This document shows positions 1 to 59,369 of a DNA stretch of 64,000 nt, in pieces; the first letter of the stretch is position 1; each line of letters begins with the position of its first letter. The DNA comes from Candidatus Palauibacter ramosifaciens (lineage in GTDB: Bacteria; Gemmatimonadota; Gemmatimonadetes; Palauibacterales; Palauibacteraceae), in contig VXYT01000105.1 of assembly GCA_009845855.1 (NCBI GenBank), positions 944 to 64,943 on the forward strand. Reading direction: 5' to 3'. The notes under the pieces are model-generated. The model searched no databases, had not been told where the DNA came from, and worked only from the letters and a program-made list of their open reading frames with translations. The position numbers and the translations under genes were made by a program.

Positions 1-230
1 CGCGCCCCGCCGCGGGGCTGCGAGCGCGACAATCTAGAGGAAAGGCCCGCCCCTTGCGAGTCGCCCGCCAGCGGGTCGCGCGCGCGGGCGATTCCGGCAG
101 CCCGCGGCAACGTGAGGTTTTGCGGCGGGCCGGCAGGGTGCGGCGATGCGGTCTCCGTTGTAACGTGCCTCCCTGTAGCCGGCAGCCCGTGCAAGACCCC
201 GCGTCAGCGCCACCCGGCGGGGCTTTCGCC

Positions 231-881
231 ATGGGCTGCCAGGAAACATCCGGAGTGACCGGCGCGTACGAGCGAGCGATGACCGAACAGCCCAACGAAC
301 CCGGCCGCGGCGGCCCCGAGGGCCCGGCGCCTCCGTACGCGGTCGTGCCGCTCGTCGCGGCTCCGCCGCAACCGCCGGCGGAACAGACGTCCGACACCGG
401 CGACCGCTACTCGAACGGGGTCGGCTTCGCCCTCTGGTGTTGCCTGTTCGTCGGAGCGGCCGGGATCCACCGCTTCTATCTCGGCATGTATGCGACGGGC
501 ATCATTTGGCTGCTCACATTCGGTCTCTTCGGAATCGGGCAGTTCCTCGACCTCTTCCGCATGAAGCGCCTCGTGCGGACGGCGAACATCCGCGACGGAT
601 ACCTGCCGCACCCCCGTCTCGCCGCAGCCGGCGAGCCTTCCGCCCCGTCGCGGCAGCTCGCCAAGGCGGATACCCGACAGCAGATCCTGCTGAAGGCCGC
701 GCAGGCGAACGGCGGACTGCTGACGGTGACACAGGGCGTCCTGGCCACGGGTCTCAGCTTCGAGGAGGTGGAGGAAGCGCTGCGCGAGATGGTGGTGAAG
801 GGGCACGTGGACGTGGACAACGCGGCGGACAGCGGCGTAATCGTGTACCGTTTCCCGGGCTTGGCCGGCCCGTTCAAGTGA
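231..881 (+). CDS. TM2 domain-containing membrane protein
   Basis: Two hydrophobic helices with the motif GIHRFYLGMYATGIIWLLTFGLFGIGQFLDLFRM typical of TM2 domains. The ORF-track entry 54..881 starts too early; first plausible ATG is at 231. Confidence 0.5.
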   Translation: MGCQETSGVTGAYERAMTEQPNEPGRGGPEGPAPPYAVVPLVAAPPQPPAEQTSDTGDRYSNGVGFALWCCLFVGAAGIHRFYLGMYATGIIWLLTFGLFGIGQFLDLFRMKRLVRTANIRDGYLPHPRLAAAGEPSAPSRQLAKADTRQQILLKAAQANGGLLTVTQGVLATGLSFEEVEEALREMVVKGHVDVDNAADSGVIVYRFPGLAGPFK

Positions 882-10796: not shown

Positions 10797-10802
10797 GTCG
10801 GA

Positions 10803-14133: not shown

Positions 14134-14193
14134 ATTCAACCGGGCAGCCCGCCGCAGGGGCCCCACGCCCGGCGGGCGGCCGGACTCGAGGCT

Positions 14194-14820: not shown

Positions 14821-14837
14821 GAGGACCGGGGGCCGGT

Positions 14838-15800: not shown

Positions 15801-15804
15801 GGCG

Positions 15805-16008
15805 TCAGCGCGCGGAGTCCGGGTCGACGGCGTGGGCCGCCTCCCATTTGCGCTGTTCCTCCAGGGCTTCCTCGACCTCCCGCTGGCGTTGCCGGCGGCG
15901 CGCCCGGAAAATCCCGCCCCCGATCACGACGAGCAGCAGGTAGGGCATCGCCGCCATAAACACGAACATGAGGACGTATCCCGCCTGTTCGTCGGGCGTA
16001 TGCTGCAT
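15805..16008 (-). CDS. small single-TM membrane protein
   Basis: 67 aa (MQHTPDEQAGYVLMFVFMAAMPYLLLVVIGGGIF + charged tail), 45 nt downstream of ctaB. Only the C-terminal part of ORF 15805..16602 is credible. Confidence 0.35.
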   Translation of the reverse strand: MQHTPDEQAGYVLMFVFMAAMPYLLLVVIGGGIFRARRRQRQREVEEALEEQRKWEAAHAVDPDSAR

Positions 16009-16052
16009 CTGCGGGGCCGCCGCGAGGACGGCGAAAGGTTTCGGCACGGCCA

Positions 16053-16973
16053 CTACAGCTTGTCGAGGACGAGTACCGCCATGAGCAGTGGAAGATACAG
16101 GATCGAGGCCCGGAACAAACCCCGGGCGTTCGCCGGCGTCGCGGCGCGGGCGAAGCGGAGCGCGGTCCACAGGAAGAACCCGCCGAGACCGAGCGCCACC
16201 GTGAAGTAGGCGAGGCCTGTGAGGCCGAGGACGCTCGGTAGCAGACTCACCGGAATCAGCGTGAGCGCGTAGAGCAGCGCCTGGTGGCGCGTCCGCCGGC
16301 CCTCGAAATCGCCGACGGAGAGCATGCGAAGCCCCGCCGCCCCGTAATCGTCGCGGAGCAGCCACGCCAGGGCGAGAAAGTGCGGCAACTGCCAGACGAA
16401 GAGGATCGCGAACAGCGCCCAGCCGCCCGGACCGAACTGCCCGGTGGCGGCGGTCCAGCCACCGAGGATCGGCAGCGCCCCGGGCACCGCGCCCACGACG
16501 GTGGAGAGCGAGTGCACGCGCTTGAGCGGCGTGTAGACGAAGTCGTAGGAGATGAAGGTGGCGAGCGCGAGGCCCGCGGTCACCGGATTGACCGCGATCC
16601 ACAGCCAGACGATGCCCGCCGCGGCCAGGACGCCGGAGAAGGCCGCAGCCGGGGGTGTCGCGATCCGGCCCGCCGGCAGAGGCCGCGCGCGCGTGCGCCC
16701 CATGAGCGCGTCCACATCCCGCTCCAGCACCTGGTTCATCGCGCTCGTTCCCGATGCCACGAGGGCCACGCCGGCCATGGCCTGCGCGAAGAGGGCGAAG
16801 TCGAAGCTCGCCGCGCCGAGGAGGAATCCGGCGGCCGCGCTCGCGACGACGAGCGCCGTGATGCGCGGCTTGGTGAGTTCCAGGTATGCGGGAAGCGTCC
16901 CGCGAATCGAGTGGACCCGCCTCGACATCCCGCCGAGCGGGATGGGGGCCTTCAGCAGGCTGCCGGCCTCCAC
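16053..16973 (-). CDS. ctaB: protoheme IX farnesyltransferase (heme O synthase)
   Basis: UbiA-family polyprenyltransferase with the typical CtaB/CyoE N-terminus YLELTKPRI. Start may be the internal ATG at 16928. Confidence 0.85.
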   Translation of the reverse strand: MEAGSLLKAPIPLGGMSRRVHSIRGTLPAYLELTKPRITALVVASAAAGFLLGAASFDFALFAQAMAGVALVASGTSAMNQVLERDVDALMGRTRARPLPAGRIATPPAAAFSGVLAAAGIVWLWIAVNPVTAGLALATFISYDFVYTPLKRVHSLSTVVGAVPGALPILGGWTAATGQFGPGGWALFAILFVWQLPHFLALAWLLRDDYGAAGLRMLSVGDFEGRRTRHQALLYALTLIPVSLLPSVLGLTGLAYFTVALGLGGFFLWTALRFARAATPANARGLFRASILYLPLLMAVLVLDKL

Positions 16974-16986
16974 GACGGCGTCGCGC

Positions 16987-17295
16987 CTACACGTACTCCA
17001 TCATGATCGCGATGATCATGATGGCCACGGCCGGAAGGGGCGCCAGCGCCACCAGCCGCAGGCGGTTGGGTTCGAATTTCAGGTGCATGTAGTAGAGCGC
17101 GACGAGCAACGCCTTCCAACCCGCCATGATGAGCAGTGACGTGATGATCAACCACTGTGCGATGTCCAGGTAGACCACCCCGACCTCGAGGGCCGTGAGG
17201 ATGGCCAGGTACAGCCAGATGAGCATGTACTTCGGGTGCTCGTGCCCGTGATCGTCGGCGCCGCCCGCCGCGTGTCCTCCGGCTGCTTCACTCAT
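16987..17295 (-). CDS. cytochrome c oxidase subunit IV (prokaryotic type)
   Basis: 102 aa, two TM helices, His-rich N-terminus; directly downstream of coxC. Confidence 0.6.
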   Translation of the reverse strand: MSEAAGGHAAGGADDHGHEHPKYMLIWLYLAILTALEVGVVYLDIAQWLIITSLLIMAGWKALLVALYYMHLKFEPNRLRLVALAPLPAVAIMIIAIMMEYV

Positions 17296-17350
17296 TCGTT
17301 CGCTCCATGTCTCCCGGCGCCGACCGGCCCGGCGCGGCCAGGTGTCGACG

Positions 17351-17965
17351 CTAGATCAGGTATACGATCGTGAACAGGATGATCCACACGAGGTCGACGA
17401 AGTGCCAGTAGAGGCCGAGCACCTCGATCCCGTGCGTGTTGTCCGCCCCCCAGTGCCCGCGCCAGGCGCGGATCGTGGCCCACGCAAGGCAGATGACGCC
17501 GAGCAGGACGTGGAAGCCGTGGAAGCCCGTCATGGTGAAGAACGTCGCCCCGTACAGTCCCGCGGCCGGCGTGAACCCGTGGCTCCCCTGCCAGGACTGG
17601 TGAAGCACGAGTTCGACGTACTCGTACACCTGCACGCCGAGGAAGGTCGCCCCCAGGAGCGTCGTCCCCAGGAGATAGACCTTGATCCCCCGCTGATCCC
17701 CCGCCTGCGCGGCCGCGAACGCCTTCACCATCGTCACCGAGCTGCAGATGAGGAGGAAGGTGTTGAACGCGGTGATCGGGACGTTGAGCACCTCGTTGGG
17801 TACCGCCCACGTGTCGGCGGCCCCGAACCGGAGCACGACGTACGAGCCGATGAGGCCCGCGAAGAACATCACCTCCGAGCACAGAAACACCCACATTCCC
17901 ACCTTCTGGGTGTAGACGTCGAGTCCTCGCTCGGGGACCCGGCCTGCGGTCGCGGCGTGCGCCAT
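17351..17965 (-). CDS. coxC: cytochrome c oxidase subunit III
   Basis: 204 aa with 5-6 TM helices; GFHGFHVLLGV and WHFVDLVWI motifs. Confidence 0.85.
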   Translation of the reverse strand: MAHAATAGRVPERGLDVYTQKVGMWVFLCSEVMFFAGLIGSYVVLRFGAADTWAVPNEVLNVPITAFNTFLLICSSVTMVKAFAAAQAGDQRGIKVYLLGTTLLGATFLGVQVYEYVELVLHQSWQGSHGFTPAAGLYGATFFTMTGFHGFHVLLGVICLAWATIRAWRGHWGADNTHGIEVLGLYWHFVDLVWIILFTIVYLI

Positions 17966-18008
17966 TATCGTCTCTTCCCTTCCCCTGCGCTGCTGGTTCG
18001 ATCGATGG

Positions 18009-19775
18009 TCAATGGCTGCCCGCGGCCGGGCTCACGACGTCCGGCCGTTCGTTCTGGGCCAGCCAGTCCTTGTCCTCCACATCCGGGTGGCTGTACTCGT
18101 GCGGACCGTGATAGACGACCGGGACTTCCTCCCAGTTGCCGTGCTTGGGCGGCGAGGGCGTCTGCCATTCCAGCGTCGTCGCGTTCCACGGATTCGCCCC
18201 GGCCTTCCTCCCCTTCTTCAGGCTCCAGAAGAAGTTGAAGGCGAACAGGAAGCCGGACGCGAAGAGTCCGAACGCCGCCCACGTGATGATCGCGTTCGTG
18301 TCCTCGATGCCCTGCAGGTGCGCGTAGCCGGTGGAGTCGTAGATGCGGCGCATCATCCCCACCATCCCCACGCCGTGCATCGGGAAGAAGACCAGGTTGA
18401 AGAAGACGAAGGTGAGCCAGAAGTGGATCTTGCCCATCGTCTCGTTCATCATCCGGCCGAACATCTTCGGATACCAGAAGTAGATCGCCCCGAAGAGCGC
18501 GAACAGGCTGCCTCCGAAGAGTACGTAGTGGATATGCGCCACGATGAAGTACGTGTCGTGGATGTAGATGTCCACCGGCGTCGAGGCCATGAAGACGCCC
18601 GACAGGCCTCCGATCGCGAACATCGCCACGAACCCGATCGCGAACAGCATGGCCGAGTGGAGCTGGAGGTTCCCGCGCCACATCGTGCCCATCCAGTTGA
18701 ACGTCTTGATCGCCGAGGGCACGGCGATGAAGAGCGTCGAGACGGTGAAGGTGAGCCCCAGCATCGGGTTCATCCCGCTCTGGAACATGTGGTGGCCCCA
18801 CACGATGAAGCCCAGGAAGGCGATCGAGACGAGCGCCAGGACCATCGCCTTGTAGCCGAACACCGGCTTCCGCGACCCCACGGAGAGGATCTCGGAGGTG
18901 AAGCCCATGGCCGGGAGGATGAGGATGTAGACCTCCGGGTGGCCGAAGAACCAGAACAGGTGCTGCCAGAGGAGCGGCTGTCCCCCGCCCTCCGGGAGGA
19001 AGAAGCTCGTTCCGATCGTCTGGTCGAAGATGAGCATGATCCCGGCGGCCGACAGGACGGGCATCGCGAGCAGCGCGAGGATGGCCGTGATGAACAGCGA
19101 CCAGATCGTCAGCGGCATGCGCATCCAGGTCATGCCGGGGGCGCGCATGTTGATCGTCGTCGTGATGTAGTTCACCGATCCCAGAATCGATGAGAGCCCG
19201 ATGAAGACGAGCGCTACCAGCCACAGGATCTGCCCCAGCCCGACGCCGGTAAGGTCGGGACGCGCGCTGAGCGGCGCGTAGAGCGTCCAGCCGGCCCCGG
19301 CCGCGCCTCCGACGACGAAGAAGCTGGCAAGGGTGAGGATGCCCGCCGGCACCATGGCCCAGAATGAGAGCATGTTGAGCCGCGGGAACGCCATGTCGTG
19401 CGTGCCCAGCTGGAGCGGGATGAGGTAGTTCGCCCACACGCCCACGAGCATCGGCATGATGGCGAGGAAGACCATCACCGAGCCGTGCATCGTGACGAGC
19501 GCGTTGTAGAACTCCGGCAGTATGTACCCGCTCGCGACCATGCTCTCGGGGAAGATCCCGCCCAGCGGCAGCTCGCCCCGCGCCGGCCACGCGATCTGGT
19601 ATCGCATGAGCATCGCGAGCAGTCCGCCGATCATGAGGAAGAACAGGGTGTAGATCAGGAACTGGATCGCGATGACCTTGTGGTCGGTCGAGAAGATGTA
19701 CTTGCGCAGGAAGGACTGCTCGTGCTCCTCGTGCAGGATCGCCTGCCCGGTCGCCTCCGCTACGATCGTCGCCAT
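18009..19775 (-). CDS. coxA: cytochrome c oxidase subunit I (A-family heme-copper oxidase)
   Basis: 588 aa; WFFGHPEVYILILP and HDTYFIVAHIHYVL motifs. Confidence 0.95.
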   Translation of the reverse strand: MATIVAEATGQAILHEEHEQSFLRKYIFSTDHKVIAIQFLIYTLFFLMIGGLLAMLMRYQIAWPARGELPLGGIFPESMVASGYILPEFYNALVTMHGSVMVFLAIMPMLVGVWANYLIPLQLGTHDMAFPRLNMLSFWAMVPAGILTLASFFVVGGAAGAGWTLYAPLSARPDLTGVGLGQILWLVALVFIGLSSILGSVNYITTTINMRAPGMTWMRMPLTIWSLFITAILALLAMPVLSAAGIMLIFDQTIGTSFFLPEGGGQPLLWQHLFWFFGHPEVYILILPAMGFTSEILSVGSRKPVFGYKAMVLALVSIAFLGFIVWGHHMFQSGMNPMLGLTFTVSTLFIAVPSAIKTFNWMGTMWRGNLQLHSAMLFAIGFVAMFAIGGLSGVFMASTPVDIYIHDTYFIVAHIHYVLFGGSLFALFGAIYFWYPKMFGRMMNETMGKIHFWLTFVFFNLVFFPMHGVGMVGMMRRIYDSTGYAHLQGIEDTNAIITWAAFGLFASGFLFAFNFFWSLKKGRKAGANPWNATTLEWQTPSPPKHGNWEEVPVVYHGPHEYSHPDVEDKDWLAQNERPDVVSPAAGSH

Positions 19776-32384: not shown

Positions 32385-32828
32385 CTACATGCCTTCCAGC
32401 CCGAGATCGGAGCGGGCACGATCCATGACGGCGGGCGTCATTTCCTCGATCCCGCGCTCCCGGGCGTATTCGTTGTAGATCTTCTTCACCATCCCCCGCA
32501 CGAAGGAGGGTACGTGGCCGAGCCGCTCGACCGCATCCACGTTCCAGCGCACGGGTCCGGGGTTCGTCAACGGCGCTGCGGGCAAGGCTTCGTCGCGCGG
32601 GTCCTCCACGCCGGCGCGAATGCCCTCGAAGTTCTCGTTCGGGACGGTCCGACCTCCCACCTTCACGCCGAGCGAACTCACGAGTTGCGTCTCCATGGGG
32701 TTGGCGAGCATCGCCGTCTTCCGCCCGCAGGCGGGGCACCTGAAGACGGCGGCCATTGTGCCGTCGCCGGGTACGGCCCGCTCGTCGAAGGCCATCTGCC
32801 GGTCGCACTCCACGCAGAGGAACTTCAT
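32385..32828 (-). CDS. zinc-ribbon protein with PCP_red-like module
   Basis: CVECDRQ...CPACGRK zinc ribbon, then VRWNVDAVERLGHVPSFVRGMVKKIYNEYARERGIEEMTPAVMDRAR. ATG at 32828. Confidence 0.5.
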   Translation of the reverse strand: MKFLCVECDRQMAFDERAVPGDGTMAAVFRCPACGRKTAMLANPMETQLVSSLGVKVGGRTVPNENFEGIRAGVEDPRDEALPAAPLTNPGPVRWNVDAVERLGHVPSFVRGMVKKIYNEYARERGIEEMTPAVMDRARSDLGLEGM

Positions 32829-33715
32829 CGCGTCGCGGGCGCCGCGCGGAGCACGTCGACCATCGTCCGGACGGCTTCCGCTGTGGGCCCTCCACCAGCC
32901 AGCCATTCCTCAAGCCGCCCCTCGTCCGCCGCGGCCCCCAACGCCGCGTCGAAGGGGAGTCGCGCGAGCAGCGGGGCCCGAAAGCGCTCCGCCAGCTCGG
33001 CCCCGGCGTTTCCGGCGTGCAGCGGCGCGAGCCCCCCGCAGGCGTCGCAGCGAACCCCCGACAGGTTCTCCACGAGTCCCGGCATGGGGAGGCCGCGTCT
33101 CCGGGCGAGATCGAGCGAGCGGGCCACGGCATCGCGGGAAGCCGCGCTCGGGATGGTGACCGCGATGATGCCCGCCAGTCCGGGGACGAGCGCGTGAAGC
33201 TCGGCGAGGCGCTGGGTGCCAGGTGGCAGGTCCACGAGCAGCACATCCAGCTCTCCCCACGCGACATCCGACAAAAATTCGCGCAGAGCCCCCCGCTCCT
33301 GGGCGCCGCGCCACACGAAACCGGCGTCGGCGGGCTCGCGCCACGTGAGGGCGCGGTCCGGCTCCATGAGAAACGCCATCGACATGACGCGGACCCCGGC
33401 GCGCGAGGAGGGCGGCGCGAATCCGTTCCGGGATTCGGCGAGGACTCCGGGCTCGATGCCGAGGAGGCGCGGCACGCTGGGGCCGTTCAGGTCGGCGTCG
33501 ACCAGGCCCACGCGATCCCCGCGGCGGGCGAGCGCGGTCGCGAGGAGGCCGGAGACGAGGCTCTTCCCCACGCCGCCCTTGCCGCTCATCACCGCGATGA
33601 CCCGGGCGACGGAAGCGAGCCGCACGGACACGCGCTCGTCCCCCGCCGCGATCTGGTCGGGGAGATCCGAACGCAGTTCGTCCACTTCGTGGTAGGTGCG
33701 AAATCCGGAACTCAT
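32825..33715 (-). CDS. apbC: Mrp/NBP35/ApbC-family Fe-S cluster carrier ATPase
   Basis: Deviant Walker A GKGGVGKS; CxxC (CDACGG) Fe-S bridging motif. Confidence 0.8.
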   Translation of the reverse strand: MSSGFRTYHEVDELRSDLPDQIAAGDERVSVRLASVARVIAVMSGKGGVGKSLVSGLLATALARRGDRVGLVDADLNGPSVPRLLGIEPGVLAESRNGFAPPSSRAGVRVMSMAFLMEPDRALTWREPADAGFVWRGAQERGALREFLSDVAWGELDVLLVDLPPGTQRLAELHALVPGLAGIIAVTIPSAASRDAVARSLDLARRRGLPMPGLVENLSGVRCDACGGLAPLHAGNAGAELAERFRAPLLARLPFDAALGAAADEGRLEEWLAGGGPTAEAVRTMVDVLRAAPATR

Positions 33716-33759
33716 GGGGAGTGGAAGCTCCAATCGGGCCGGCAGACGGTCAACAGTGG

Positions 33760-33947
33760 ATAGCAGCCCGTGGCAAAACCCCGCTGCGTTCGAGCGGCGC
33801 TGCAGGTCGCCATCCCCAGAGGGGGCCCCCCGGCGCTCTGCGTCGCTCCTCGATCACGTAGCGCTGCTATGCTCCCTCGTCGCTCCTTGTCAGGCGAACG
33901 TTTCACCGCTCTCGGCGATTGACGCGGGGTTTTGCCACGGACTGCCA
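33760..33947. repeat. ~190-bp MITE/REP-like element with ~22-bp terminal inverted repeats, copy 1
   Basis: Ends CAGCCCGTGGCAAAACCCC ... GGGGTTTTGCCACGGACTGCCAG. Same element recurs inverted at 40002..40191. Explains ORFs 33712..33906 and 39997..40182, which share the translation ALLCSLVAP...DAGFCHGLP. Confidence 0.7.
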
Positions 33948-33983
33948 GAGGCGAAGTTTCGGCTCGCGTCCCGCCTTCGTACG

Positions 33984-34256
33984 ATGTTCGAAAGACGGAT
34001 CGAAGTCCACCGTGAATCGGAACATCCCATGTCGATCATCGGGTTTCACCGTTTTCTCATCGCAACGGCCATCGTCTTCTGCGCCGTCTTCGCCGCGTGG
34101 GAGTTCCGGATCTTCGCGAGCGCCGGGAGTCTCGGGGCGCTCGCGATCGGTGTGATCTTCGCGCTCGCGGCGGCGGCGCTGGCCTACTATCTCGCCAACC
34201 TGGCCAGGTTCCTGGACGGAACGCGGCACGAGTCCCCGTGGCACCGGGGTCGGTGA
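33984..34256 (+). CDS. small two-TM membrane protein
   Basis: MSIIGFHRFLIATAIVFCAVFAAWEF...ALAIGVIFALAAAALAYYL; start at ATG 33984 or 34029. Confidence 0.35.
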   Translation: MFERRIEVHRESEHPMSIIGFHRFLIATAIVFCAVFAAWEFRIFASAGSLGALAIGVIFALAAAALAYYLANLARFLDGTRHESPWHRGR

Positions 34257-34882
34257 GGCGCGAGGACCGGGCGGACGGAGGCCGGCCGGTTGTACTCTAT
34301 TTCGCGGCCGCCGTGTTCCTGTTCATCCTCGTCGTCGTCGTTGCCGGCTCGTTCACGAGGCCCGACCCCGTCACCTTCGTTCCAACGCCCGTCGCCCTGC
34401 GCGCCCCCGTGGACCGGTTCGTCGTGGACACGGTCACCGTCGATGCCCGGGACGGCTCGCGATGGGTCTACTTCGATTTCGACCGGGGGAGCGCGGTCGC
34501 CGGCCCGCTCGCCGGCTGGGATCTCGCGCTCAACCGGTATCACGTCGTCGTGAACGGCGGCGCCGGATACCCCGGGGCCGGCGGAGCGATCGCCATCGGC
34601 GCGCCGTGGGAAACCGTGACCGAGGCCCCGGCGTCCGGTTACGCGACGACGGAGGGCGCGCTGGAGGATGGCCCGGCGACGCCCGGACTCGAGCGCTGGT
34701 ACCGGTACGGGTTCTTCTCCCACCTCCTCGAACCGAAGGACGAGACGTACGTGATCCGGACGGCGGAGGGTGGCTACGCGAAGCTGAGGATCCTGAGCTA
34801 TTACTGCCCGCAGGCGACGCCCGGATGCGTGACCCTCATGTACGGCTTTCAGGGAGACGGTTCGCGGCGCCTCACGGACTGA
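34253..34882 (+). CDS. membrane-anchored hypothetical protein
   Basis: GTG overlaps the upstream TGA; N-terminal TM (VVLYFAAAVFLFILVVVVAGSF) then ~180-aa soluble domain with no clear family. Confidence 0.4.
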   Translation: MRREDRADGGRPVVLYFAAAVFLFILVVVVAGSFTRPDPVTFVPTPVALRAPVDRFVVDTVTVDARDGSRWVYFDFDRGSAVAGPLAGWDLALNRYHVVVNGGAGYPGAGGAIAIGAPWETVTEAPASGYATTEGALEDGPATPGLERWYRYGFFSHLLEPKDETYVIRTAEGGYAKLRILSYYCPQATPGCVTLMYGFQGDGSRRLTD

Positions 34883-35849
34883 GCCGGCGTGCCCGCTCCA
34901 CGAGGCCGGACGCCCCCGCCTCGACCAACTGTTCCGCCAGCCGGCGGCCGAGTGCGCCGGGCGAAGCGCGAGACCCCGTACCGGCCGCTTCGACCGGGGG
35001 GCCACCGTCCACGTCGTAGACGGCCGCGCGGAGCAGGAGGTCCTCCGCCCGCAGTGACGCGCGGGCGGCGATGGGAACCCGGCATCCACCTTCGAGCGCC
35101 GCGAGCAGTGCCCGCTCGGCGGTCGTCTCCGCCCGGGCGGCCGGATCGTCGAGCGCCCCGATGCGCGCGGCCGCTCCGTCCGGCCCGTCGCGACACTGGA
35201 GCCCGAGCGCACCTTGACCGGGGGCCGGTAGCCAGTCCTCATCGAGGACGTGGGCGCCGGGGGGCCACACGCCGAGCCGCCGGAGCCCGGCCGCCGCCAG
35301 GACCAGCGCCTCGAAGCGGCCGTCCTCCAGCTTGTGGAGCCGCGTGTCGACATTCCCGCGGATCGGCCGCGGATCGAGGTCGGTCCGGGCGGCGCGCAAC
35401 TGAGCGGCGCGGCGCAACGACGACGTGCCGACGCGCGCGCCGGAGGGGAGGCGTCGCAGAAGGTCGCGTCCATCCGCGTCCCGGGGCGCGGAGTCCGGCG
35501 GATTCCGAACCGCGAGATTCCGAACCACGAGCACGTCCCGGGGATCTTCGCGGGTCGGGACGGCGCCCAGCATCAACCCGTCGGGGAGGTCCGCCGGCAG
35601 ATCCTTCAGGGAGTGCACCGCGACATCGATGTCTCCTTCCCGGAGCGAGCGTTCGAGGTCTTCGGTGAACAGCCCCTTCCCTCCGATCTCCGGAAGCGGC
35701 GTCGCGAGATCGCGGTCCCCGGCAGTGGTGATGAACCGGTATTCAACGGGCAGCTCGGGCCAGCGTTCGCGCAGCCGTTCGCCCACCCAGGCGGCCTGCG
35801 CCCGGGAGAGCGGTGACCGCCGCGCCCCGACCACGAGCGGCGCATTCAC
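34872..35849 (-). CDS. hemC: hydroxymethylbilane synthase (porphobilinogen deaminase)
   Basis: VGARRSPLSRAQA...GKGLFTEDLE...SLKDLP and GGCRVPIAA motifs. Confidence 0.85.
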   Translation of the reverse strand: MNAPLVVGARRSPLSRAQAAWVGERLRERWPELPVEYRFITTAGDRDLATPLPEIGGKGLFTEDLERSLREGDIDVAVHSLKDLPADLPDGLMLGAVPTREDPRDVLVVRNLAVRNPPDSAPRDADGRDLLRRLPSGARVGTSSLRRAAQLRAARTDLDPRPIRGNVDTRLHKLEDGRFEALVLAAAGLRRLGVWPPGAHVLDEDWLPAPGQGALGLQCRDGPDGAAARIGALDDPAARAETTAERALLAALEGGCRVPIAARASLRAEDLLLRAAVYDVDGGPPVEAAGTGSRASPGALGRRLAEQLVEAGASGLVERARRLSP

Positions 35850-37438
35850 CGCCGGCCGACGTGTCCCAGCACGCCGAGAATGGCCGCCCGGTCAACCTTC
35901 CCCACGCCGGTGAGCGGCATCTCCTCCACGAGCGCGATGCGCCGGGGGTGCGCGTACGCGGGTCCGCGCTCGAGCGTGTAGCGCTTGAGCGATTCGGCCG
36001 TGGCCCTCGCCTCCGGCCCGAGTCTGACCACCGCGGCCGGGACCGCGCCCTTGAGGGCGTGGGGCACGGGCACGACAGCCGCCTCGCGGACATCAGGATG
36101 GGACAGCAGCAGGTCCTCCACCTCCTTGGGATAGATGTTCTCGCCGCCCGAGTTGAACATGTCGTCGGTGCGGCCGCGGAAGTAGTAGAAGCCCTCCCCG
36201 TCGCGGAAGAAGAGGTCGCCCGTGGCGAGCCAGCCGTCCCGGATCCGGGCCGCGTTGACCGCGGGCAGGTTGTGATAGCCGGTCGTGACGCCGGGATTCC
36301 GAACCCACAGCTCACCGTACTCCGGATCTTCGCGGCCGTCGCGCACGAGCCTGATCTCTCCCTCGGGCCACGCCGTACCGCAGCTTCCCCTCGGAGTCGG
36401 ACGTCCGTCGCGCGCAGGCCCGATCATGACCGGTCCGCCCTCTGTGAGCCCGTAGCTCTCGCCGACTTCAACGCCGAACGCGCGCTCGACCGCGTGCATC
36501 AGTTCGGGCTGCACCGGGGCGGATCCCAGCGTGACCTTCCGGAGCGCCGAGAAATCCAGCTCCGCGATCAGGTCCATGCGATCCAGGATCATCGCGAACA
36601 CGGCGGGGACGGCCCCCACCTGCGTACACCGGTACTCGCTGAGGGCCCGCAGGAAGGATTCCGGGGAGAAGCCGGGAAGAACGACGACCGAAGCCCCGGC
36701 CTGCAGCAAGGGCTTGATGGCCCCGGCCATCGCGTTCTTGTGGTAGAGGGGCACGGCGACGAGCGCCCGGTCGCCCGGGGCGGCGGGCCAGTACTTCCGC
36801 AGGCACCGCACCCACCAGAGCTGCCCTTCGTGGGAGAGGACAACGCCCTTGGGCTTGCCCGTCGACCCCGACGTGTAGGGCTGGAAGGCCGGGTGGCCGG
36901 CGCCGAGCCTCGGAGGGTCGAACCGGGCCGGTGATCCCCCGAGCGCGCGCTCGTAGTCCAGCCACTCGGCGCTGCCTGGTTCGAGCCTCCGGCCGGCCCC
37001 GCCGACGTCCCACCTTGTCTCGATTCCCGACTGTTCGACGACCGCGGCCGAGCGCTCCGTGACGGCGGTCTCGACGAAGGCGGCCCGGCAGGCCGCGTCC
37101 CGCACGATGTGGGCGAGCGACGCCGCCGACAGCTTGAAGTTGAGGGGCACCGGGACAGCCCCGCAGCGCATCCCGCCGAAGAGGATTTCGACGAACTCGA
37201 AGCGGTTCCCGACACTCAGCGCAAACCGGTCGCCGGCTCCGATACCGGCATCCGAGAGCAGGTTGGCCACGCGATCCATCCGCTCGTTCAGTTCGGCGTA
37301 GGTGACCTCGCGGGGGACGGGACGTGAAAGGTCGATGAGCGCGACGCGGCCGGGGAAAGCCTCGGCCGCTTCGCGGAGCCAGTATCCGAGGTTGGCATCG
37401 CGGCCGCGGGAACCGTCGGCCCGCCCGGCGCCGCTCAC
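35846..37438 (-). CDS. AMP-dependent synthetase/ligase (acyl-CoA synthetase family)
   Basis: YTSGSTGKPKGV AMP-binding motif; GYG-TE...; GTGA-type start at 37438. Confidence 0.8.
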   Translation of the reverse strand: MSGAGRADGSRGRDANLGYWLREAAEAFPGRVALIDLSRPVPREVTYAELNERMDRVANLLSDAGIGAGDRFALSVGNRFEFVEILFGGMRCGAVPVPLNFKLSAASLAHIVRDAACRAAFVETAVTERSAAVVEQSGIETRWDVGGAGRRLEPGSAEWLDYERALGGSPARFDPPRLGAGHPAFQPYTSGSTGKPKGVVLSHEGQLWWVRCLRKYWPAAPGDRALVAVPLYHKNAMAGAIKPLLQAGASVVVLPGFSPESFLRALSEYRCTQVGAVPAVFAMILDRMDLIAELDFSALRKVTLGSAPVQPELMHAVERAFGVEVGESYGLTEGGPVMIGPARDGRPTPRGSCGTAWPEGEIRLVRDGREDPEYGELWVRNPGVTTGYHNLPAVNAARIRDGWLATGDLFFRDGEGFYYFRGRTDDMFNSGGENIYPKEVEDLLLSHPDVREAAVVPVPHALKGAVPAAVVRLGPEARATAESLKRYTLERGPAYAHPRRIALVEEMPLTGVGKVDRAAILGVLGHVGRR

Positions 37439-37656
37439 TCGTCGGACCGCGAGGGGCGCGCGAGCACGGCGATGCAGGCGACCGTGGCGCCGCAGCCGAC
37501 GACGACCCACGTCCAGCCGCCGCCCCCGCCCGTCCGCATGACCGACGAGACGCCCCACAGCGCCACCGCGTTCGCGACCAGGTTGAGAACGAGTCCCCAG
37601 ACCCGCCCCGACCAGGGTCCGACCCGTCGTGCGAGAAGCCGGTCCACGGCGCTCAT
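37435..37656 (-). CDS. small membrane protein
   Basis: 73 aa with two hydrophobic helices; start overlaps the mntH stop. Confidence 0.3.
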   Translation of the reverse strand: MSAVDRLLARRVGPWSGRVWGLVLNLVANAVALWGVSSVMRTGGGGGWTWVVVGCGATVACIAVLARPSRSDE

Positions 37657-38993
37657 CACCACCACCCCAGCCGATTGAAGACGTACGTGACGGCGATCGC
37701 GTTGAGGAGGGTCACTTGGAGCAGGATCCCGAGGTTCCACAGGTAGGACCGACAGCGGTCAGCGCCGAGGAGTTCCCGGTCGTTCAGCAGGAGGTACATC
37801 GACCATCCGACGACGTTGTTCGCCAGCGAGAGAAAGGCCGCGATCGCGATCACGAGCCACACCGGACGGGCATTCCAGGCGGCCAGGAAGGCGACCTGCG
37901 GCAGCAGCGCACTGACCCTCCAGCGCCACGACGACGTGTCGGGCTCCCAGCCGAAGGCCTCGTGGACGGCCATCGCCCCCGCCAGGCTCATCCCGACCGT
38001 CGTCGTGATCGGCACGGCCAGAAAACCCGCGTAGAAAAGGATCTGCGACCACGTGGGTCCGAGGAGCGGCATGAGGGCGGCCGCCAGTTCGGGCGCCGAG
38101 TCGGGGGTGACCCCCTGCGGAAACAGCGTCGCCGCGAACACGCCGATCATCAGAAAGTTGATGACGACGAACGGTACGAAAAGCCCGGCGATGAGGTCGA
38201 AGCGGGCCAGCGATTCGTGTTTCCGCCCCCAGCCCCGGCCGAGTCCCGCGTAGTGGAAGAAGACCCAGTCCATGACCCCGACGGCGGCGGCGGACGACGC
38301 GATGAAGAGGTCCAGACCCTCCCCGCCTCCGGGCAGCCACGGCACGAAGAAGCCGCGCGCCGCCGCGCCCCAGTCGACGCCCACCAGCAGCAGCACGGCT
38401 CCGAACGCGAGGATCATGACGGCGATGCCGCTCTTCATGACCGCCTCGACGAGCCGCGTCCCCCGGCCTCCCCGGCGCCCGTAGCTGAGGATGAGCGCGC
38501 TCGTGACCCCGCAGTAGAGGAGCCAGTTGTACTCGGCGGGGAACGTGAAGCCGGCAAACGGCGCCAGCGACTCGATGAGATGGGTGCCGAGCGCGACCTG
38601 GCCGAAGTTGAAGATCACGGCGACCGCGGCGGTGCCGACGAGGCCGGTCATCAGGGACCCGATGACCCATGAGTGGCGCCGGTTCTGTGTCGGAATGACG
38701 CGGAAGCCGCCCCGGCAGGTGAAACGGGCCATCGCGGCCATCATGAAGAGGCCCAGCCCCGCACTCAACCAGATGAGCCACAGGGTGCGGTAGCCGAAGG
38801 TGGCGCCCGACAGCATCGAAGCCGTGAGCGTGCCGGCACCGAGCGTGAGCGCCGCCCCCATGAACCCCGGCCCGGCCAGGCGGGCGTAGCCACCGAGCCT
38901 GCGGTGCCACGGCGCGTCGGCGAGCTGTGCCATCCGGTCGGCTTCGGCATCCAGGACCGCCCGCGGGATCTTGCGGGCGATCGGATAGTTCAC
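37656..38993 (-). CDS. mntH: NRAMP-family divalent metal (Mn2+/Fe2+) transporter
   Basis: About 11 TM helices; DPGN-like N-terminal region GPGFMGAALTLGAGTL and MPH-like region. GTG start overlaps the upstream TGA; an alternative ATG lies at 38933. Confidence 0.75.
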   Translation of the reverse strand: MNYPIARKIPRAVLDAEADRMAQLADAPWHRRLGGYARLAGPGFMGAALTLGAGTLTASMLSGATFGYRTLWLIWLSAGLGLFMMAAMARFTCRGGFRVIPTQNRRHSWVIGSLMTGLVGTAAVAVIFNFGQVALGTHLIESLAPFAGFTFPAEYNWLLYCGVTSALILSYGRRGGRGTRLVEAVMKSGIAVMILAFGAVLLLVGVDWGAAARGFFVPWLPGGGEGLDLFIASSAAAVGVMDWVFFHYAGLGRGWGRKHESLARFDLIAGLFVPFVVINFLMIGVFAATLFPQGVTPDSAPELAAALMPLLGPTWSQILFYAGFLAVPITTTVGMSLAGAMAVHEAFGWEPDTSSWRWRVSALLPQVAFLAAWNARPVWLVIAIAAFLSLANNVVGWSMYLLLNDRELLGADRCRSYLWNLGILLQVTLLNAIAVTYVFNRLGWW

Positions 38994-40000
38994 GGGGTCA
39001 GAATCGATTTTCCGAATACGGCGCGCTCCATGAGTTCGCGCATCGCCGCGCGGCTCTCGTCGATGGGCCTGACGGCGTGGATGACCGGGTCGAGTTCGCC
39101 GCCCGCCACCATGTCGAGCAGCCGCGCCAGCCCCTCGCGGCTCCAACCGTCCGATCCGATGATCGACTGCTCGAAGCTCCAGATGTAACGGATGTCCGTG
39201 CGCGGGTCGTAGCCGGCGGTGGCCCCGCAGGTAACCATGCGGCCCTGGAAGCGCAGCGCCTTCAGGCTGGCGGCCCACGTGGTCCCGCCGATGTAGTTGA
39301 TCACGGCGTCCACGCCTCCGGCGTCGGGATCGTGGTAGCGGGGCCGGCCCGCGATCGCCCGCACTTGGCGCACCAGTTCGGCGGAGTCGGAGGGCAGCAC
39401 GTGATCCGCCCCCAGCGCGCGGAGCCGTTCGAGCTTCCAGCGCGAGCCTCCGGTGGCGATGATCCGCGCCCCGGTTCGCTTGCAGAGCTGGACGCAGCCA
39501 CAGCCCACGCCGCCCGTCGCCCCCAGGATCAGCACCGTCTCGCCCGGTTGTATCCGGGCGCGGTCCTCGATCATGCGCAGGGCGGTCCCGTACGCGACGG
39601 GCAGGGCGGCGGCCTGCTCGAACGAAACGCCGTCGGGAACCGACAGCAGATTCCCGAGGGGGACGGCGAGGTACTCGGCGGCCGCGCCCGGAGCCTTCTC
39701 GCCCAGCATGCCGCGGCCCTCGATCAACGGGTCGATCAGCACGCGGTCCCCGACCCGCCGTCCGGCCGCGTCCGTCCCGGGTCCGAAGCCGGCGATCTCT
39801 CCCGCCGCGTCGCCACACGGCGTCATGGGGAGCGGGACTCGCAGCCCCGTCGTGCCGCCCAGCATCATCGGATCGAAACCGTTGAGCCCGCAGGCCCGGA
39901 TCCGGACCAGGGCTTCCCCGGGCGCGGGTTCCGGGTCGGGGACCTCGCCCACGTAGAGTTGGTCGGCGTCGCCGTGGGCGTCGTAGAGGACCGCCTTCAC
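38990..40000 (-). CDS. zinc-type alcohol dehydrogenase/quinone oxidoreductase (MDR family)
   Basis: VKAVLYDAHGD...EVP.P.PG.GE.LVRI.A.GLN and GATGGVGCG nucleotide-binding motifs. GTG start abuts the repeat element. Confidence 0.8.
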   Translation of the reverse strand: MKAVLYDAHGDADQLYVGEVPDPEPAPGEALVRIRACGLNGFDPMMLGGTTGLRVPLPMTPCGDAAGEIAGFGPGTDAAGRRVGDRVLIDPLIEGRGMLGEKAPGAAAEYLAVPLGNLLSVPDGVSFEQAAALPVAYGTALRMIEDRARIQPGETVLILGATGGVGCGCVQLCKRTGARIIATGGSRWKLERLRALGADHVLPSDSAELVRQVRAIAGRPRYHDPDAGGVDAVINYIGGTTWAASLKALRFQGRMVTCGATAGYDPRTDIRYIWSFEQSIIGSDGWSREGLARLLDMVAGGELDPVIHAVRPIDESRAAMRELMERAVFGKSILTP

Positions 40001-40001
40001 A

Positions 40002-40191
40002 CTGGCAGTCCGTGGCAAAACCCTGCGTCGGCGCCGAGAGCGGCGAGGCGCTCGGCGGGGACCCCTCTGGGGAGAGGCGCGACGAGGGAGCATAGCAGGG
40101 CTGTGTGACCGAGGAGCAACGCAGAGCGTAGCGTTTCAGGCGAGATGCATTCGCCGCTCGAACGCAGCAGGGGTTTTGCCACGGGCTGCTA
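40002..40191. repeat. ~190-bp MITE/REP-like element, copy 2 (inverted relative to copy 1)
   Basis: Ends CTGGCAGTCCGTGGCAAAACCC ... GGGGTTTTGCCACGGGCTGCTA. Internal blocks GCGACGAGGGAGCATAGCAG and CGCCGCTCGAACGCAGC are shared with copy 1, with partial internal rearrangement. Confidence 0.7.
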
Positions 40192-40632
40192 GCCCACCAG
40201 GGACGAGTAAGTCCCGCGTCCGACGGCGCACAAGCGACCCTGGTCGTCGTGCACGTCGATGTCCGACACCGAGATCGTGCGGCCGAAACGCCGCAGACGG
40301 GCCGTGGCGAGCAGATAGGGGCCGGTGCAGGGACGGAGGTAGTCGACGCGCAGCGAGATGGTCGGCACCCCGCCTCCCGCTCGCACGGCGACGACCATGT
40401 CTCCGGCGATGTCGATCAGCGACGCGACCGGACCGCCGTGATATATCGTGCCGTCACCGCGCGTCAGCTCCGGTTGTTTTGCCATCCGGAGGACCGCCGT
40501 GTCTTCGCCCAGCTCCTCGAGCGTGACGCCGAGTGCGACGATCGCCTCCGAGTCGGCGAGGATGGACTCGATGAGAGACCGTGCGTCCGCATCCCGAACC
40601 CCGCCGGTCCGCGCCGCGCGGGACCTCGTCAT
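40189..40632 (-). CDS. PaaI-type hotdog-fold thioesterase
   Basis: 147 aa with GTIYHGGPVASLID...A. Only the C-terminal 147 aa of ORF 40189..42141 are credible. ATGA overlap with the upstream mrp gene. Confidence 0.6.
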   Translation of the reverse strand: MTRSRAARTGGVRDADARSLIESILADSEAIVALGVTLEELGEDTAVLRMAKQPELTRGDGTIYHGGPVASLIDIAGDMVVAVRAGGGVPTISLRVDYLRPCTGPYLLATARLRRFGRTISVSDIDVHDDQGRLCAVGRGTYSSLVG

Positions 40633-50710: not shown

Positions 50711-51307
50711 TCAGGGGAAATCGACCTCGAAGCCGAGCGCCAGCCCGATGGAGCCATCTGCGGGCGGGCCGATCGACGGCTCGAAGTCCCAGAACTGCGT
50801 GGACACCCAGGCGTCGAGACCGCTCAGAAAGGCGAAAAAACCGGCGAGGACGATCCAGTTCTCCCTCTGCCCCGAGCGGTTGGAGATTCGCTCTTCGTTC
50901 AGCGGCAGCTCCTCCTTCGCCGCGGAGAGCCGGGCGTCCGATTTGAATACCATGAACAGGAAGACGGACTCCGCCGCGAAGTAGAAGGCGCCGCGAGCCG
51001 GGCGCCCGACCTCCAGTTGTCCCCAGCCCGGAAGGATCAGGGAGCGCCCGAAGGCACCGAGCGGGGAGATCGGCGGGCGCCGAATCGTCGTGTCGGCGAC
51101 AAGGCTCGTTTCGGCGACGGCGGAATCGGGCGCGGCCACGGGAAGCGGTGGATCCTGCGCCCGCAGCGGCGAGGGGCCCAGGGCCTGGCCGGCCAGAAGC
51201 ACGGTCACGAGCACGAAGGTGGCGGGAACGTGTGGGAATCGAACCCACCCGGGACGCGCGAACGCCCCGTAACGGTTTTGAAGACCGCAGGCGACACCAG
51301 TCACCAT
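50711..51307 (-). CDS. hypothetical secreted/membrane protein with PGWGQ motif
   Basis: N-terminal hydrophobic segment; LILPGWGQL motif and FFAFLSGLDAWV helix. Confidence 0.35.
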   Translation of the reverse strand: MVTGVACGLQNRYGAFARPGWVRFPHVPATFVLVTVLLAGQALGPSPLRAQDPPLPVAAPDSAVAETSLVADTTIRRPPISPLGAFGRSLILPGWGQLEVGRPARGAFYFAAESVFLFMVFKSDARLSAAKEELPLNEERISNRSGQRENWIVLAGFFAFLSGLDAWVSTQFWDFEPSIGPPADGSIGLALGFEVDFP

Positions 51308-51353
51308 CCGCTCCCGGTCATCCGCATCGTTCGTGGTTCATATCCGGCCGCCG

Positions 51354-55206: not shown

Positions 55207-55247
55207 GGCGGAGCACTGCCGGCGCGGGTCCGAGACCCTGCACCCGA

Positions 55248-55616
55248 TGGAGGCGGCGGGAATCGAACCCGCGTCCGCGAGCCCATCCGCCACGGCATCT
55301 ACGTGCGTAGTCCGTGATCGAGTCTCGTCCCGCAAGGGTTCACGAACAACCCCTTGCGAAACCAGCCGCGTACACGGCTCTCGCCATGCTCTCGCCACCC
55401 GCGGCTCACGGCACGCCGGGATGACCAGCCCGATTCATCGACGTCCATCGGGAGGTCCTCGGGCCCGGACCTCTCGGGGACGGGCTACGCGATTTTACGC
55501 AGCCAGAGCCAAACCATCGTTGGCACCTGAAGATTCCCCGGTGTTTAACGAGGCCCCGGGCACCTCGGCACGCTTCCGCGGCTTCCGGTTCACGCGTCGA
55601 AGCCGTGTCGCCCCCC
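55248..55616 (-). ncRNA. ssrA: tmRNA (ssrA)
   Basis: 5' end GGGGGCGACACGGCUUCGACGCGUG...GUGCCGAGG. 3' end has T-arm GGUUCGAUUCCCGCCGCCUCCA. Internal tag reading frame GCC AAC GAU GGU UUG GCU CUG GCU GCG UAA gives ANDGLALAA*. Confidence 0.8.
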
Positions 55617-56626: not shown

Positions 56627-58546
56627 CTAGCCGGGGGGGCGGGCGAGGACCCTCCCTTCCACGGTTCGTCGGGTCACGCCTTCCCGGTCGAGGTATTCGA
56701 GGAGCGGAATCAGGTATTTGCGGGAGAGCCCGAACGCTTCCTTGAATCGCGCGGGAGGGGCCGGGACGCCGTCGGCGAGAAGCTCTCTCGCTCGCGCCTC
56801 CACCTTCTCCAGCGCCCCGACGGCGACGTGCAGCTCGGGCGTGACGGCCTTCGTCGCGCCGGCTTCCTGCAGCAGCCGGAGGAGGTCGTCGAGCACGGCG
56901 CGGTCCAGGCGCAACTTCTTTCCCAGTTCCGCGACGAGCGGCGGCTGCAGTCCGGCAGCTGCTATCGTCTCGGCGAGTTGCGCACGTCCCTCCTCCTCGC
57001 GCGGCGTGAGGCGGGGCGCGTGGCCCGGAAGGGCGAGTCGCGGCCCACTCTCGAGGAGGCGACCGTCGGCCAGGAGTCGGCCGACGGCGGTCTCCGCCAG
57101 TTCGAGGTCGCAGACGCGCACCATCGCCGAGCGCACGGCCTCTTTCGACACGCCCGGGGCGCGGCGGTCGGCGGCGTGTAGGCGGGCCATGCAGGCCTCC
57201 ACGGCCTCCATTGCCTCGGCTACCGCGTCGGCAGCGAACCAGCGGTCCCCAATGCGCACGCACTCCGCCTCCTCGGCGGCCGCCTCGAGCGTGGGGTCGC
57301 GCCGCCCGAGGATGATCGATGATGTCGCGACGGGGAGCCCGCGCAGTCCCTCAAGCGTCACGGCGGCCGCGAGCGCCTCCGCCGGGGCGCCGTCGAGAAT
57401 CCGCCGCCAGGCTGCCGTCCGCGCGGGCCAGTCGGGCGGCGGGTCCGGTTCCGCCACGCGGATCCCGCCGATCGTCGTCACCGGCGAGTAGAATCGAAGG
57501 ATGGCCCGATCGCGGGTCCGGGCGAGGAGCGGCGCCTCGAGGGCAAGCACCGCCCAGGCCGTCGCTCCAGGTGCGACGGGCTGGCGACCGGCCGTTTGAA
57601 GTCGGGCCATGACTTCACGGGTGCCGAGGTAGACTCTGAGACGCTGTCCATGGCGGAGGGGTCGGTCGCGGCTCCCGAGCGCTCGTACCCGGACGCCGAG
57701 ACGCTCGCTCGACCTCCACTCGGACGGGTCCACGAGCACGCTCCCCCGCTCCACCCCCGCCGGCGCGACGCCGACGAGCGCGACGGCGCACCGGCGGCCG
57801 GCGGTGACGCGACGACGAGGGTCTTCATGCACCTGAAGTGCGCGCACCCGGGCCGAGCCGCCATCGGGGAAGACGCGCACAGTGTCGCCCACGCTGACGG
57901 ACCCGCTCCACACGGTGCCGGTCACGACGGTCCCCGTGCCCCGGATCGAGAAGGATCGGTCGACCGGGAGCCGGAAGCGGTCGTCGATGCTGCGCGCGCG
58001 GATCCCCGCCGCCAACCTGCGGAGCGAAGCCCGCAGCGGTGCGATTCCGTCTCCCGTGACGGCGGAAACCGGCACGATCTCCCACGACGCCCGGGCGGGG
58101 TCCTCGTCCAGCAGTTCCCGGGTGGTCTCGCTCGCGAGGTCGAGCCAGTCCCCATCCACGCGGTCGCTCTTCGTGAGCGCGACAACCCCTCGCCGGATAT
58201 TCAGAAGCCGCGCGATCGCGAGGTGCTCGTGCGTCTGCGGCATCGGACCCTCGTCCGCCGCGACGACGAGGAGGAGGACATCGATGCCGGTGGCCCCGGC
58301 AAGCATGTTCTTGAGAAAGTCCTCGTGCCCAGGGACGTCCACAATCCCCGTCTCCAGGTCTGGATCGAGGTCGAGCCGGGCGAACCCCAGGTCTATCGTC
58401 AGCCCCCGCTTCCGCTCCTCCACCCAGCGGTCCGTCTCGACCCCAGTCAACGCCCGCACAAGGGCGGTCTTGCCGTGATCCACGTGGCCCGCCGTCCCGA
58501 TCACGATCCCGCGCCGATCTCTCGCGTCCCCCCTCACCGTAGGCAC
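56627..58546 (-). CDS. selB: selenocysteine-specific elongation factor
   Basis: GTAGHVDHGKT P-loop, EF-Tu-like domains, long winged-helix C-terminal extension; 639 aa. Confidence 0.85.
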   Translation of the reverse strand: MPTVRGDARDRRGIVIGTAGHVDHGKTALVRALTGVETDRWVEERKRGLTIDLGFARLDLDPDLETGIVDVPGHEDFLKNMLAGATGIDVLLLVVAADEGPMPQTHEHLAIARLLNIRRGVVALTKSDRVDGDWLDLASETTRELLDEDPARASWEIVPVSAVTGDGIAPLRASLRRLAAGIRARSIDDRFRLPVDRSFSIRGTGTVVTGTVWSGSVSVGDTVRVFPDGGSARVRALQVHEDPRRRVTAGRRCAVALVGVAPAGVERGSVLVDPSEWRSSERLGVRVRALGSRDRPLRHGQRLRVYLGTREVMARLQTAGRQPVAPGATAWAVLALEAPLLARTRDRAILRFYSPVTTIGGIRVAEPDPPPDWPARTAAWRRILDGAPAEALAAAVTLEGLRGLPVATSSIILGRRDPTLEAAAEEAECVRIGDRWFAADAVAEAMEAVEACMARLHAADRRAPGVSKEAVRSAMVRVCDLELAETAVGRLLADGRLLESGPRLALPGHAPRLTPREEEGRAQLAETIAAAGLQPPLVAELGKKLRLDRAVLDDLLRLLQEAGATKAVTPELHVAVGALEKVEARARELLADGVPAPPARFKEAFGLSRKYLIPLLEYLDREGVTRRTVEGRVLARPPG

Positions 58547-59290: not shown

Positions 59291-59369
59291 GAGTCCCAAT
59301 CGCCCCCCTGGTGCCGTGGCAAGACCCTGCGTCCGCGCCGGGGGCGGTGAGGCGCTCGCCCGGACGCGG

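Follow-up and report, generated by a model that had tools for sequence, protein, structure and literature searches.

Inverted copies of a probable MITE-type palindromic repeat around a 6-kb gene block in Candidatus Palauibacter ramosifaciens

What are two sequences of about 190 nucleotides (nt) doing, in opposite orientations, on either side of a 6-kb block of genes? The question is raised by a 64,000-nt stretch of DNA from Candidatus Palauibacter ramosifaciens (contig VXYT01000105.1; this whole stretch is called the window below, and coordinates refer to it unless another contig or locus is named). A sequence-only reading of the window had described the pair as copies of an element resembling a miniature inverted-repeat transposable element (MITE), with terminal inverted repeats (TIRs) and partially shuffled interiors, and had proposed that the pair might invert the block, supply promoters or belong to a repeat dispersed throughout the genome. 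With a probability that we put at roughly 0.8, the two sequences belong to a mobile, non-coding family of the MITE type, which is built on a palindrome of ~176 nt with TIRs, has inserted as a discrete unit and includes full-length, internally deleted and truncated members. The family is previously undescribed, while the kind of element, a bacterial MITE, is already known. It has been recently active in Palauibacterales-like Gemmatimonadota and has relatives in Acidobacteriota.

Both copies are complete and lie where they had first been noticed, with TIRs at their ends. Copy 1 occupies 33760..33948 (189 nt; nhmmer E = 1e-48) and reads forward on the + strand, and copy 2 occupies 40002..40192 (191 nt; nhmmer E = 1e-47) and reads forward on the - strand, so that the two are inverted at a distance of 6.05 kb. 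The element proper, from GCAG to CTGC, spans 33763-33945 in copy 1, where it is flanked by TA (33761-33762) and CA (33946-33947), and 40005-40189 in copy 2, where it is flanked by TG (40003-40004) and TA (40190-40191). Copy 1 aligns with the reverse complement of copy 2 from end to end at 83% column identity. The TIRs of both copies are 22-25 nt long (CTAGCAGYCCGTGGCAAAACCCCGC), and over 22 nt their complementarity is 95% for copy 1 and 91% for copy 2. With 0-1 mismatch allowed, the window has four occurrences of the TIR core CCGTGGCAAAACCCC, compared with 0.06 expected from shuffles. The similarity also extends well beyond a short terminal motif, as an internal block of 54 nt common to both copies is 89% matched. 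The impression of partially shuffled interiors was correct and has two sources, in that a nested hairpin module sits in different arms of the two copies and the element itself is an imperfect palindrome.

This module is a GC-rich hairpin of 13-21 nt (TCCCCAGAGGGG...) that alignment and motif search placed in the left arm of copy 1 (33811..33831, + strand), where ATCCCCAGAGGGGGCCCCCCG stands in place of the consensus TGAAACGCT, and in the right arm of copy 2 (~40055..40075, - strand; CTCCCCAGAGGGG...). Its orientation relative to the core is the same in both copies. Copies at another locus, L007 (L-numbers are our handles for loci and contigs), carry a different module, CCAGTTCTCCCGGTGGGGGC, which two of the copies have in the left arm and one has in the right arm (positions ~1700-1720, ~3458-3477 and ~6599-6618 of that locus) and which is always 5' of (C)TCGG. 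Between Gemmatimonadota and Acidobacteriota hosts, the sequence of the module is unrelated and its orientation to the core is constant.

The evidence for mobility comes from Palauibacter-like relatives that carry the same genes without the element. Orthologous regions were found through HmuY homologs with 74-93% amino-acid identity (L013-L017 and L022-L026). The site of copy 1 is empty in all 8-9 contigs that cover it (L013, L014-L017, L022, L023, L025 and L026), with collinear flanks, and the site of copy 2 is empty in both contigs that have the adjacent gene pair (L013 and L022). The spacer between apbC and a small divergent gene measures 119-127 nt in the relatives where this gene pair is called and 313 nt in the window, and the spacer between the oxidoreductase and thioesterase genes measures 4 nt in L013 and L022 and 188 nt in the window. 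At site 1, L013 reads CAACAG-GCGAAG where the window reads CAACAGTGGA-[TAGCAG...CTGCCA]-GAGGCGAAG. At site 2, L013 reads CTCAC-CGCA-TCA-GCCC where the window reads TTCAC-A-[CTGGCAG...CTGCTA]-GCCC. Sequence comparison thus places the boundaries of the extra DNA at the TIR ends at both sites, and an nhmmer profile run over 166.7 kb of the relatives' orthologous regions found no copy. Since the orthologous sites are empty and the boundaries coincide with the TIR ends, these are lineage-specific insertions of a discrete unit, and copies 1 and 2 are separate insertions into gene-free spacers. A third site in the window behaves in the same way. A truncated remnant composed of the right arm and right TIR (59308..59363, - strand; nhmmer E = 1e-8) lies just upstream of recO (58568-59299, - strand), and this remnant, of which ~50 nt are concerned, is absent from the 27-nt orthologous spacer in L029, L030 and L032 (88-91% RecO identity). 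Short, non-coding, bounded by TIRs, strongly folding (z = -4.7 to -7.8) and polymorphic in its insertion among relatives, the element has earned the description MITE-like. In a separate observation, L025 has a ~45-nt TIR-like remnant (GGCAGTCCGTGGCGAAGCGGCCGCGGGCCACCGGGCCGC, ~9720-9765) in the same apbC/small-gene spacer at a different position from copy 1, which suggests that this permissive spacer was hit independently.

How far does the family reach? When one genome per species was scanned with a gapped TIR pattern, eight loci were returned, which by their record titles comprise six from Gemmatimonadota (including Candidatus Palauibacter denitrificans) and two from Acidobacteriota (a Vicinamibacterales bacterium and Candidatus Marinacidobacterium). 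At least nine further metagenome-assembled genomes or contigs, from Gemmatimonadota and Acidobacteriota, contain full copies. The consensus of the copies is a non-coding imperfect palindrome of ~176 nt with TIRs of 22-25 nt, individual copies ranging from 166 to 205 nt. Between genomes, the Gemmatimonadota copies share 91-97% identity, and their identity to the Acidobacteriota copies is 65-72%. In all 15 full copies, 17-24 of the terminal 24 positions are Watson-Crick complementary (20-24 in 14 of the 15). A profile search found four copies within 8 kb in L007, spaced 1.2-1.9 kb apart, and a scan with a single TIR found two full copies, one partial copy, one mini copy and one 40-nt remnant on the Joint Genome Institute (JGI) metagenome contigs L018-L021. 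The record OZ242312.1 has two exact matches to the pattern, and two short-read contigs break off 48 nt inside the element. Relative to transcription, seven copies across the loci are sense and three antisense, and the rest are in divergent spacers.

The window itself holds two full and two to three degraded members. Besides the recO remnant, a profile search identified a mini derivative of 64 nt (179..242, - strand) in which both TIRs are kept and the interior is deleted (CTGGCAGCCCATGGCGAAAGCCCCGC...GCGGGGTCTTGCACGGGCTGCCGG). A degenerate micro-derivative at ~95..138 on the + strand (CCGGCAGCCCGCGGCAA...GGTTTTGCGGCGGGCCGGCAGG) was recognized by eye and had no nhmmer match, and its assignment to the family is weak. 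A search of the window for TIR half-sites with up to two mismatches was at noise level (44 matches where 41 were expected). Several mini and micro derivatives are also present in L030. The earlier suggestion of a genome-wide dispersed repeat therefore stands in part, in that dispersal agrees with the degraded members found in the window, with the presence of copies in other genomes and with the contig breaks inside the element, the extent within this genome having been followed over the 64-kb window. No earlier account of the family was found. A blastn search of a plasmid collection with the consensus gave only 28-nt chance matches, a TIR scan of viral contigs gave two chance matches at a gene start (GTG GCA AAA CCC) where nhmmer detected no element, a literature search for the TIR sequence gave chance primer matches only, and the literature searched on Palauibacter and on MITEs of sponge symbionts yielded no description of the element.

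The ends of the copies offer a view of the likely target site. Of the 30 dinucleotides immediately outside GCAG...CTGC, 18 are TA and 11 more are TG or CA, each one transition from TA, and the next base outward completes CTAG at ~80% of ends. All copies of the Gemmatimonadota type end in CTAGCAG...CTGCTAG (two of the contigs concerned, L018 and L021, have no known phylum). In 5 of 13 copies, the TAG stop codon of the upstream gene overlaps the terminus by exactly the terminal CTAG. The flanks CTA|GCAG...CTGC|TAG are consistent with insertion at TA, and the reconstructed pre-insertion site of copy 2, GGC-TAG-T-GTG, is plausible without amounting to proof. IS630/Tc1-mariner elements insert at TA and duplicate it, and IS630 prefers TA within CTAG (PMC2170065, with reference to Tenzen and Ohtsubo 1991). 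A cut-and-paste DDE transposase that recognizes the TIRs would move the element in trans, and this transposase would most likely belong to the IS630/Tc1-mariner type, with the TA of CTAG as its target and a duplication of this TA on insertion. As the genome is 69% G+C, TAG stop codons would be among the few TA sites available. The TA target could thus often be a TAG stop codon, which the terminal G of the element would rebuild. Because CTAG is palindromic and no transposase with these TIRs was found, the assignment to IS630/Tc1-mariner is one that we infer. As a side observation, the terminal CTAG (alignment columns 1-4 and 249-252) decays almost only to CCAG, CTGG, CTAC and CCAC, that is, by T>C or A>G changes, which is reminiscent of the classical CTAG depletion that is ascribed to very-short-patch repair, or may simply be GC-biased mutation.

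Several points weigh against a mobile MITE-type family of this description. Scanning complete genomes of 3.6-4.9 Mb for exact matches gave only one or two copies each, counts that are lower bounds as the same scan missed three of the four copies in L007. The single-TIR scans of metagenome and viral contigs, with a pattern span of up to 600 nt, returned only short elements or chance matches and revealed neither an autonomous element nor a transposase with matching TIRs. In the relatives, the empty sites have a TGA stop and a different spacer and give no clean pre-insertion TA. Since CTAG is a palindrome, the terminal TA or CTAG could belong to the TIR and not to a target-site duplication. Finally, the arms of single copies covary with each other and the element is conserved across two phyla, a pattern that also fits a selected folded RNA or single-stranded DNA.

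Folding of the element as RNA, a check that had been proposed with the sequence-only reading, bears on this last point. All four single strands of copies 1 and 2 fold far better than their shuffles (-89 to -115 kcal/mol; z-scores as given above). RNAalifold, applied to the 15 full copies, predicted one long imperfect hairpin in which the left arm pairs with the right, together with a central stem-loop. In this structure, which was derived from the same sequences that were used for its pairing statistics, 95.5% of cells are standard pairs, a share that drops to 35-48% once the partners are slid, both sides have changed in 15 of 51 pairs and none of 500 shuffles reaches the observed values. Because the same sequences were used and because TIRs that bind one protein are expected to covary, we take the pairing as a record of a conserved fold-back architecture and not of RNA function. 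The central AT-rich stem-loop keeps its shape while its sequence changes (TAGC/GCTA, ATAC/GTAT, TATT/AATA). The signals that could distinguish the strands conflict, as mismatches in the TIR stem favor G.U pairs on the reverse strand by 21 to 6, whereas the inner stems have 69 forward G.U against 20 A.C cells, and the minimum free energy is lower on the G-rich reverse strand in every copy.

Coding and regulatory signals were sought as well. No reading frame is conserved, and the longest open reading frames lie in different frames and strands between the copies. The GTG in the TIR and the terminal TAG do not share a frame in the 176-nt consensus. A small protein beginning 'VAKP...' from this GTG was considered and rejected, as its frame is not conserved and most Gemmatimonadota copies have in-frame stops. 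The idea that the element supplies promoters found no support, since consensus scans for sigma-70-type promoters, and likewise for intrinsic terminators, returned nothing in or beside either copy. Rfam had no match over the element, either in the window at the gathering score or in L001-L008 at E <= 1.

Could the element be mainly a selected, cis-acting structured RNA, such as an operon insulator, a processing site for RNase III or RNase E or a stability element, so that its spread and conservation would reflect function rather than selfish transposition? A role of this kind has been put forward for ERIC elements. Such a role does not exclude mobility, and it would account for the strong folding, for a hairpin that runs the whole length with compensatory changes even in the central AT-rich stem-loop, for conservation across two phyla and for the frequent position between co-directional genes, where all four L007 copies are in sense orientation between housekeeping genes. 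It sits poorly, however, with the mixed orientation to transcription, the conflicting strand signals and the lack of an Rfam family. Close relatives with the same operons have empty sites, and the many decayed mini and truncated copies are typical of neutral decay. We consider this explanation unlikely. A related proposal is that co-resident marine or sponge-associated bacteria of different phyla (Gemmatimonadota and Acidobacteriota) maintain and exchange a fold-back element, with selection acting on its whole-length hairpin. The covariation of the arms, the stem-loop that keeps its shape and the small module that inserts at sequence-specific sites in fixed orientation point to mobilization through a folded single strand or to an RNA function at the level of the host, and yet the proposal as a whole strikes us as quite improbable.

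A folded single strand is also what an integron integrase recognizes, and the copies might accordingly be attC-like recombination sites of integron cassettes or an integrase-less attC cluster. Like attC sites, they are imperfect palindromes conserved in structure more than in sequence, the four L007 copies form one co-oriented cluster at intervals of 1.2-1.9 kb and one of these ends in GTTTAAC...GTTAGCG, which resembles the R''/R' core sites. However, core housekeeping genes lie between the L007 copies (nadD-like, rsfS, a LapB-like tetratricopeptide repeat protein, ComF-like, an extracytoplasmic function sigma factor and a STAS protein), and the flanking genes in the window are syntenic with those of element-free relatives. 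The Gemmatimonadota termini are CTAGCAG/CTGCTAG and not RYYYAAC/GTTRRRY, the length of 176-205 nt exceeds the usual size of attC, the orientation is mixed and no integrase was seen. Gene content and core sites largely refute this reading, to which we give next to no credence. Very little more can be said for a joint action of the two inverted copies, whether they delimit a composite transposon that imported the 6-kb block or serve as substrates of a recombination switch by which this block is inverted. The inverted orientation over 6.05 kb would suit such a pair, as would the position of copy 2 exactly at one edge of a four-gene block that some relatives lack. However, the window has the same gene order and orientation from apbC to the thioesterase gene as the element-free L013 and L022, which carry the whole region including the four-gene block, and as L010, a second, independent assembly of the same population from another sample in which both copies are present and collinear. 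No element lies at the hemC/ligase junction, which is the other edge of the variable block, and the two copies differ by indels and have at most a 28-nt near-perfect stretch in common. The same gene order in element-free relatives therefore indicates independent insertions and no composite transposon, and no inversion was seen. The pair hypothesis is thus very improbable, and the bracketing of the 6-kb block is incidental.

With a mobile MITE-type family as the preferred explanation, the genes around the two insertions can be considered. Pfam confirmed the identities that had been given to them. Copy 1 is indeed upstream of apbC (32825-33715, - strand), which encodes a Mrp/ApbC-type P-loop ATPase, and it splits the conserved divergent spacer (33716-34028, 313 nt) between apbC and a gene for 75 amino acids (34029-34256, + strand). 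A HmuY-like gene follows (34238-34882, + strand), and then hemC (34872-35849, - strand), an AMP-dependent ligase gene (35846-37558, - strand), an Nramp transporter gene between the ligase and oxidoreductase genes within the four-gene block, and a gene for a zinc-type alcohol dehydrogenase/quinone oxidoreductase with a GTG start (38990-40000, - strand). Beyond copy 2 lies a 4HBT thioesterase gene (40189-40632, - strand).

Copy 2 abuts both of its neighbors, as had been noticed from the sequence, and fills the entire 188-nt gap between them. The thioesterase stop, CTA on the + strand at 40189-40191, lies within the terminal CTGCTAG of copy 2, so that the TAG stop is made up of the flanking TA and the first G of the copy. 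At the other end, the oxidoreductase GTG (40000-39998) is one base past the copy, one base from the stem, without an obvious Shine-Dalgarno sequence. This gene is called at 367 amino acids by NCBI, from an ATG at 40093 on the - strand that is in frame within the core of copy 2, and at 336 amino acids from the GTG at 40000 in the other assembly, the GTG also being used in all relatives. The longer call is probably an annotation artifact caused by the insertion. For the host, copy 2 would replace a junction of 4 nt, at which translation is probably coupled, by a 188-nt gap able to form a hairpin with a 22-bp stem. If it is co-transcribed within the thioesterase-oxidoreductase unit, as would be expected, it would add this long hairpin to the mRNA and could uncouple or dampen the downstream gene, with an effect that is probably close to neutral.

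A number of observations concern the surroundings rather than the element. The four genes at 35846-40000 (the AMP-ligase, a 73-amino-acid open reading frame, Nramp and the quinone oxidoreductase) form a presence/absence block, which L016, L017 and L023 lack. There the next gene after hemC is that for the thioesterase, which follows directly in L016 and L017 and after a 411-nt non-matching gap in L023. L013 and L022 have the block without any element. The polymorphism of this block predates the elements and is independent of them. In L024, an island of ~8 kb (10773-18541) lies between the HmuY gene and hemC and encodes PhoD, an ankyrin-repeat protein, a mechanosensitive channel and a leucine-rich repeat/Big_2 protein. 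Eukaryote-like repeat proteins are typical of sponge symbionts. Within a few kilobases of each other in the window are tRNA-Sec (51224-51315), transfer-messenger RNA (tmRNA; 55245-55615) and the gene for the SelB elongation factor (56627-58546), and recO is directly downstream of the element remnant. In L030, a micro-hairpin of ~35 nt made of the outer TIR halves only (CAGCCCGTGGCGGGGCCTTGCCACGGGCTG; 14110-14156) lies directly 3' of the apparent tmRNA 3' end (...GGTTCGATTCCCGCCGCCTCCA) and before a T-rich terminator.

These findings leave the general understanding of MITEs unchanged. Their value is more local, as the element marks recent mobile-element activity in uncultured Gemmatimonadota of the Palauibacterales type and explains two odd intergenic regions, an oxidoreductase start called inside a repeat and the breaks of short-read contigs in this group. 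The near-identical TIRs in Acidobacteriota hint that phyla sharing a habitat have exchanged the (unseen) transposase, and filled and empty sites could serve as strain markers.

Among known systems, the MITEs derived from IS630/Tc1-mariner elements, such as those related to ISY100 in cyanobacteria, have the same anatomy. They are short and non-coding, have TIRs of ~22-25 nt and include derivatives with internal deletions, and they resemble the present family in their TA-flanked ends, CTAG context and cut-and-paste-like insertion polymorphism. They differ in that no cognate transposase was found here and that a TA duplication is indistinguishable in this family from a TIR ending in CTAG. Repetitive extragenic palindromic (REP) sequences and REPINs are short palindromes in inverted doublets that go with a RAYT (IS200/IS605-like) transposase gene. 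Read by eye, the TIRs of the present element lack a REP-type palindrome except for a 5-bp GCAGC/GCTGC pairing in the left arm of the consensus only. The Correia elements (CREE/NEMIS) of Neisseria are ~100-155 nt long, have TIRs of ~26 nt and TA flanks, occur in long forms and in short forms with internal deletions, and lie next to or between genes with which they are co-transcribed as hairpins. Their sequence and host phylum are unrelated to those described here, and the present element has no outward promoter consensus. ERIC/IRU and YPAL sequences are imperfect palindromes of ~127-170 nt that occupy transcribed intergenic regions in either orientation, and their variants have internal deletions or extra small insertions at particular internal sites. 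These extra insertions are reminiscent of the nested hairpin modules described above. ERIC/IRU and YPAL differ from the present element in sequence and hosts, and insertion polymorphism between close relatives could be demonstrated directly here. In its behavior, the Palauibacter element is similar to the ERIC and Correia elements.

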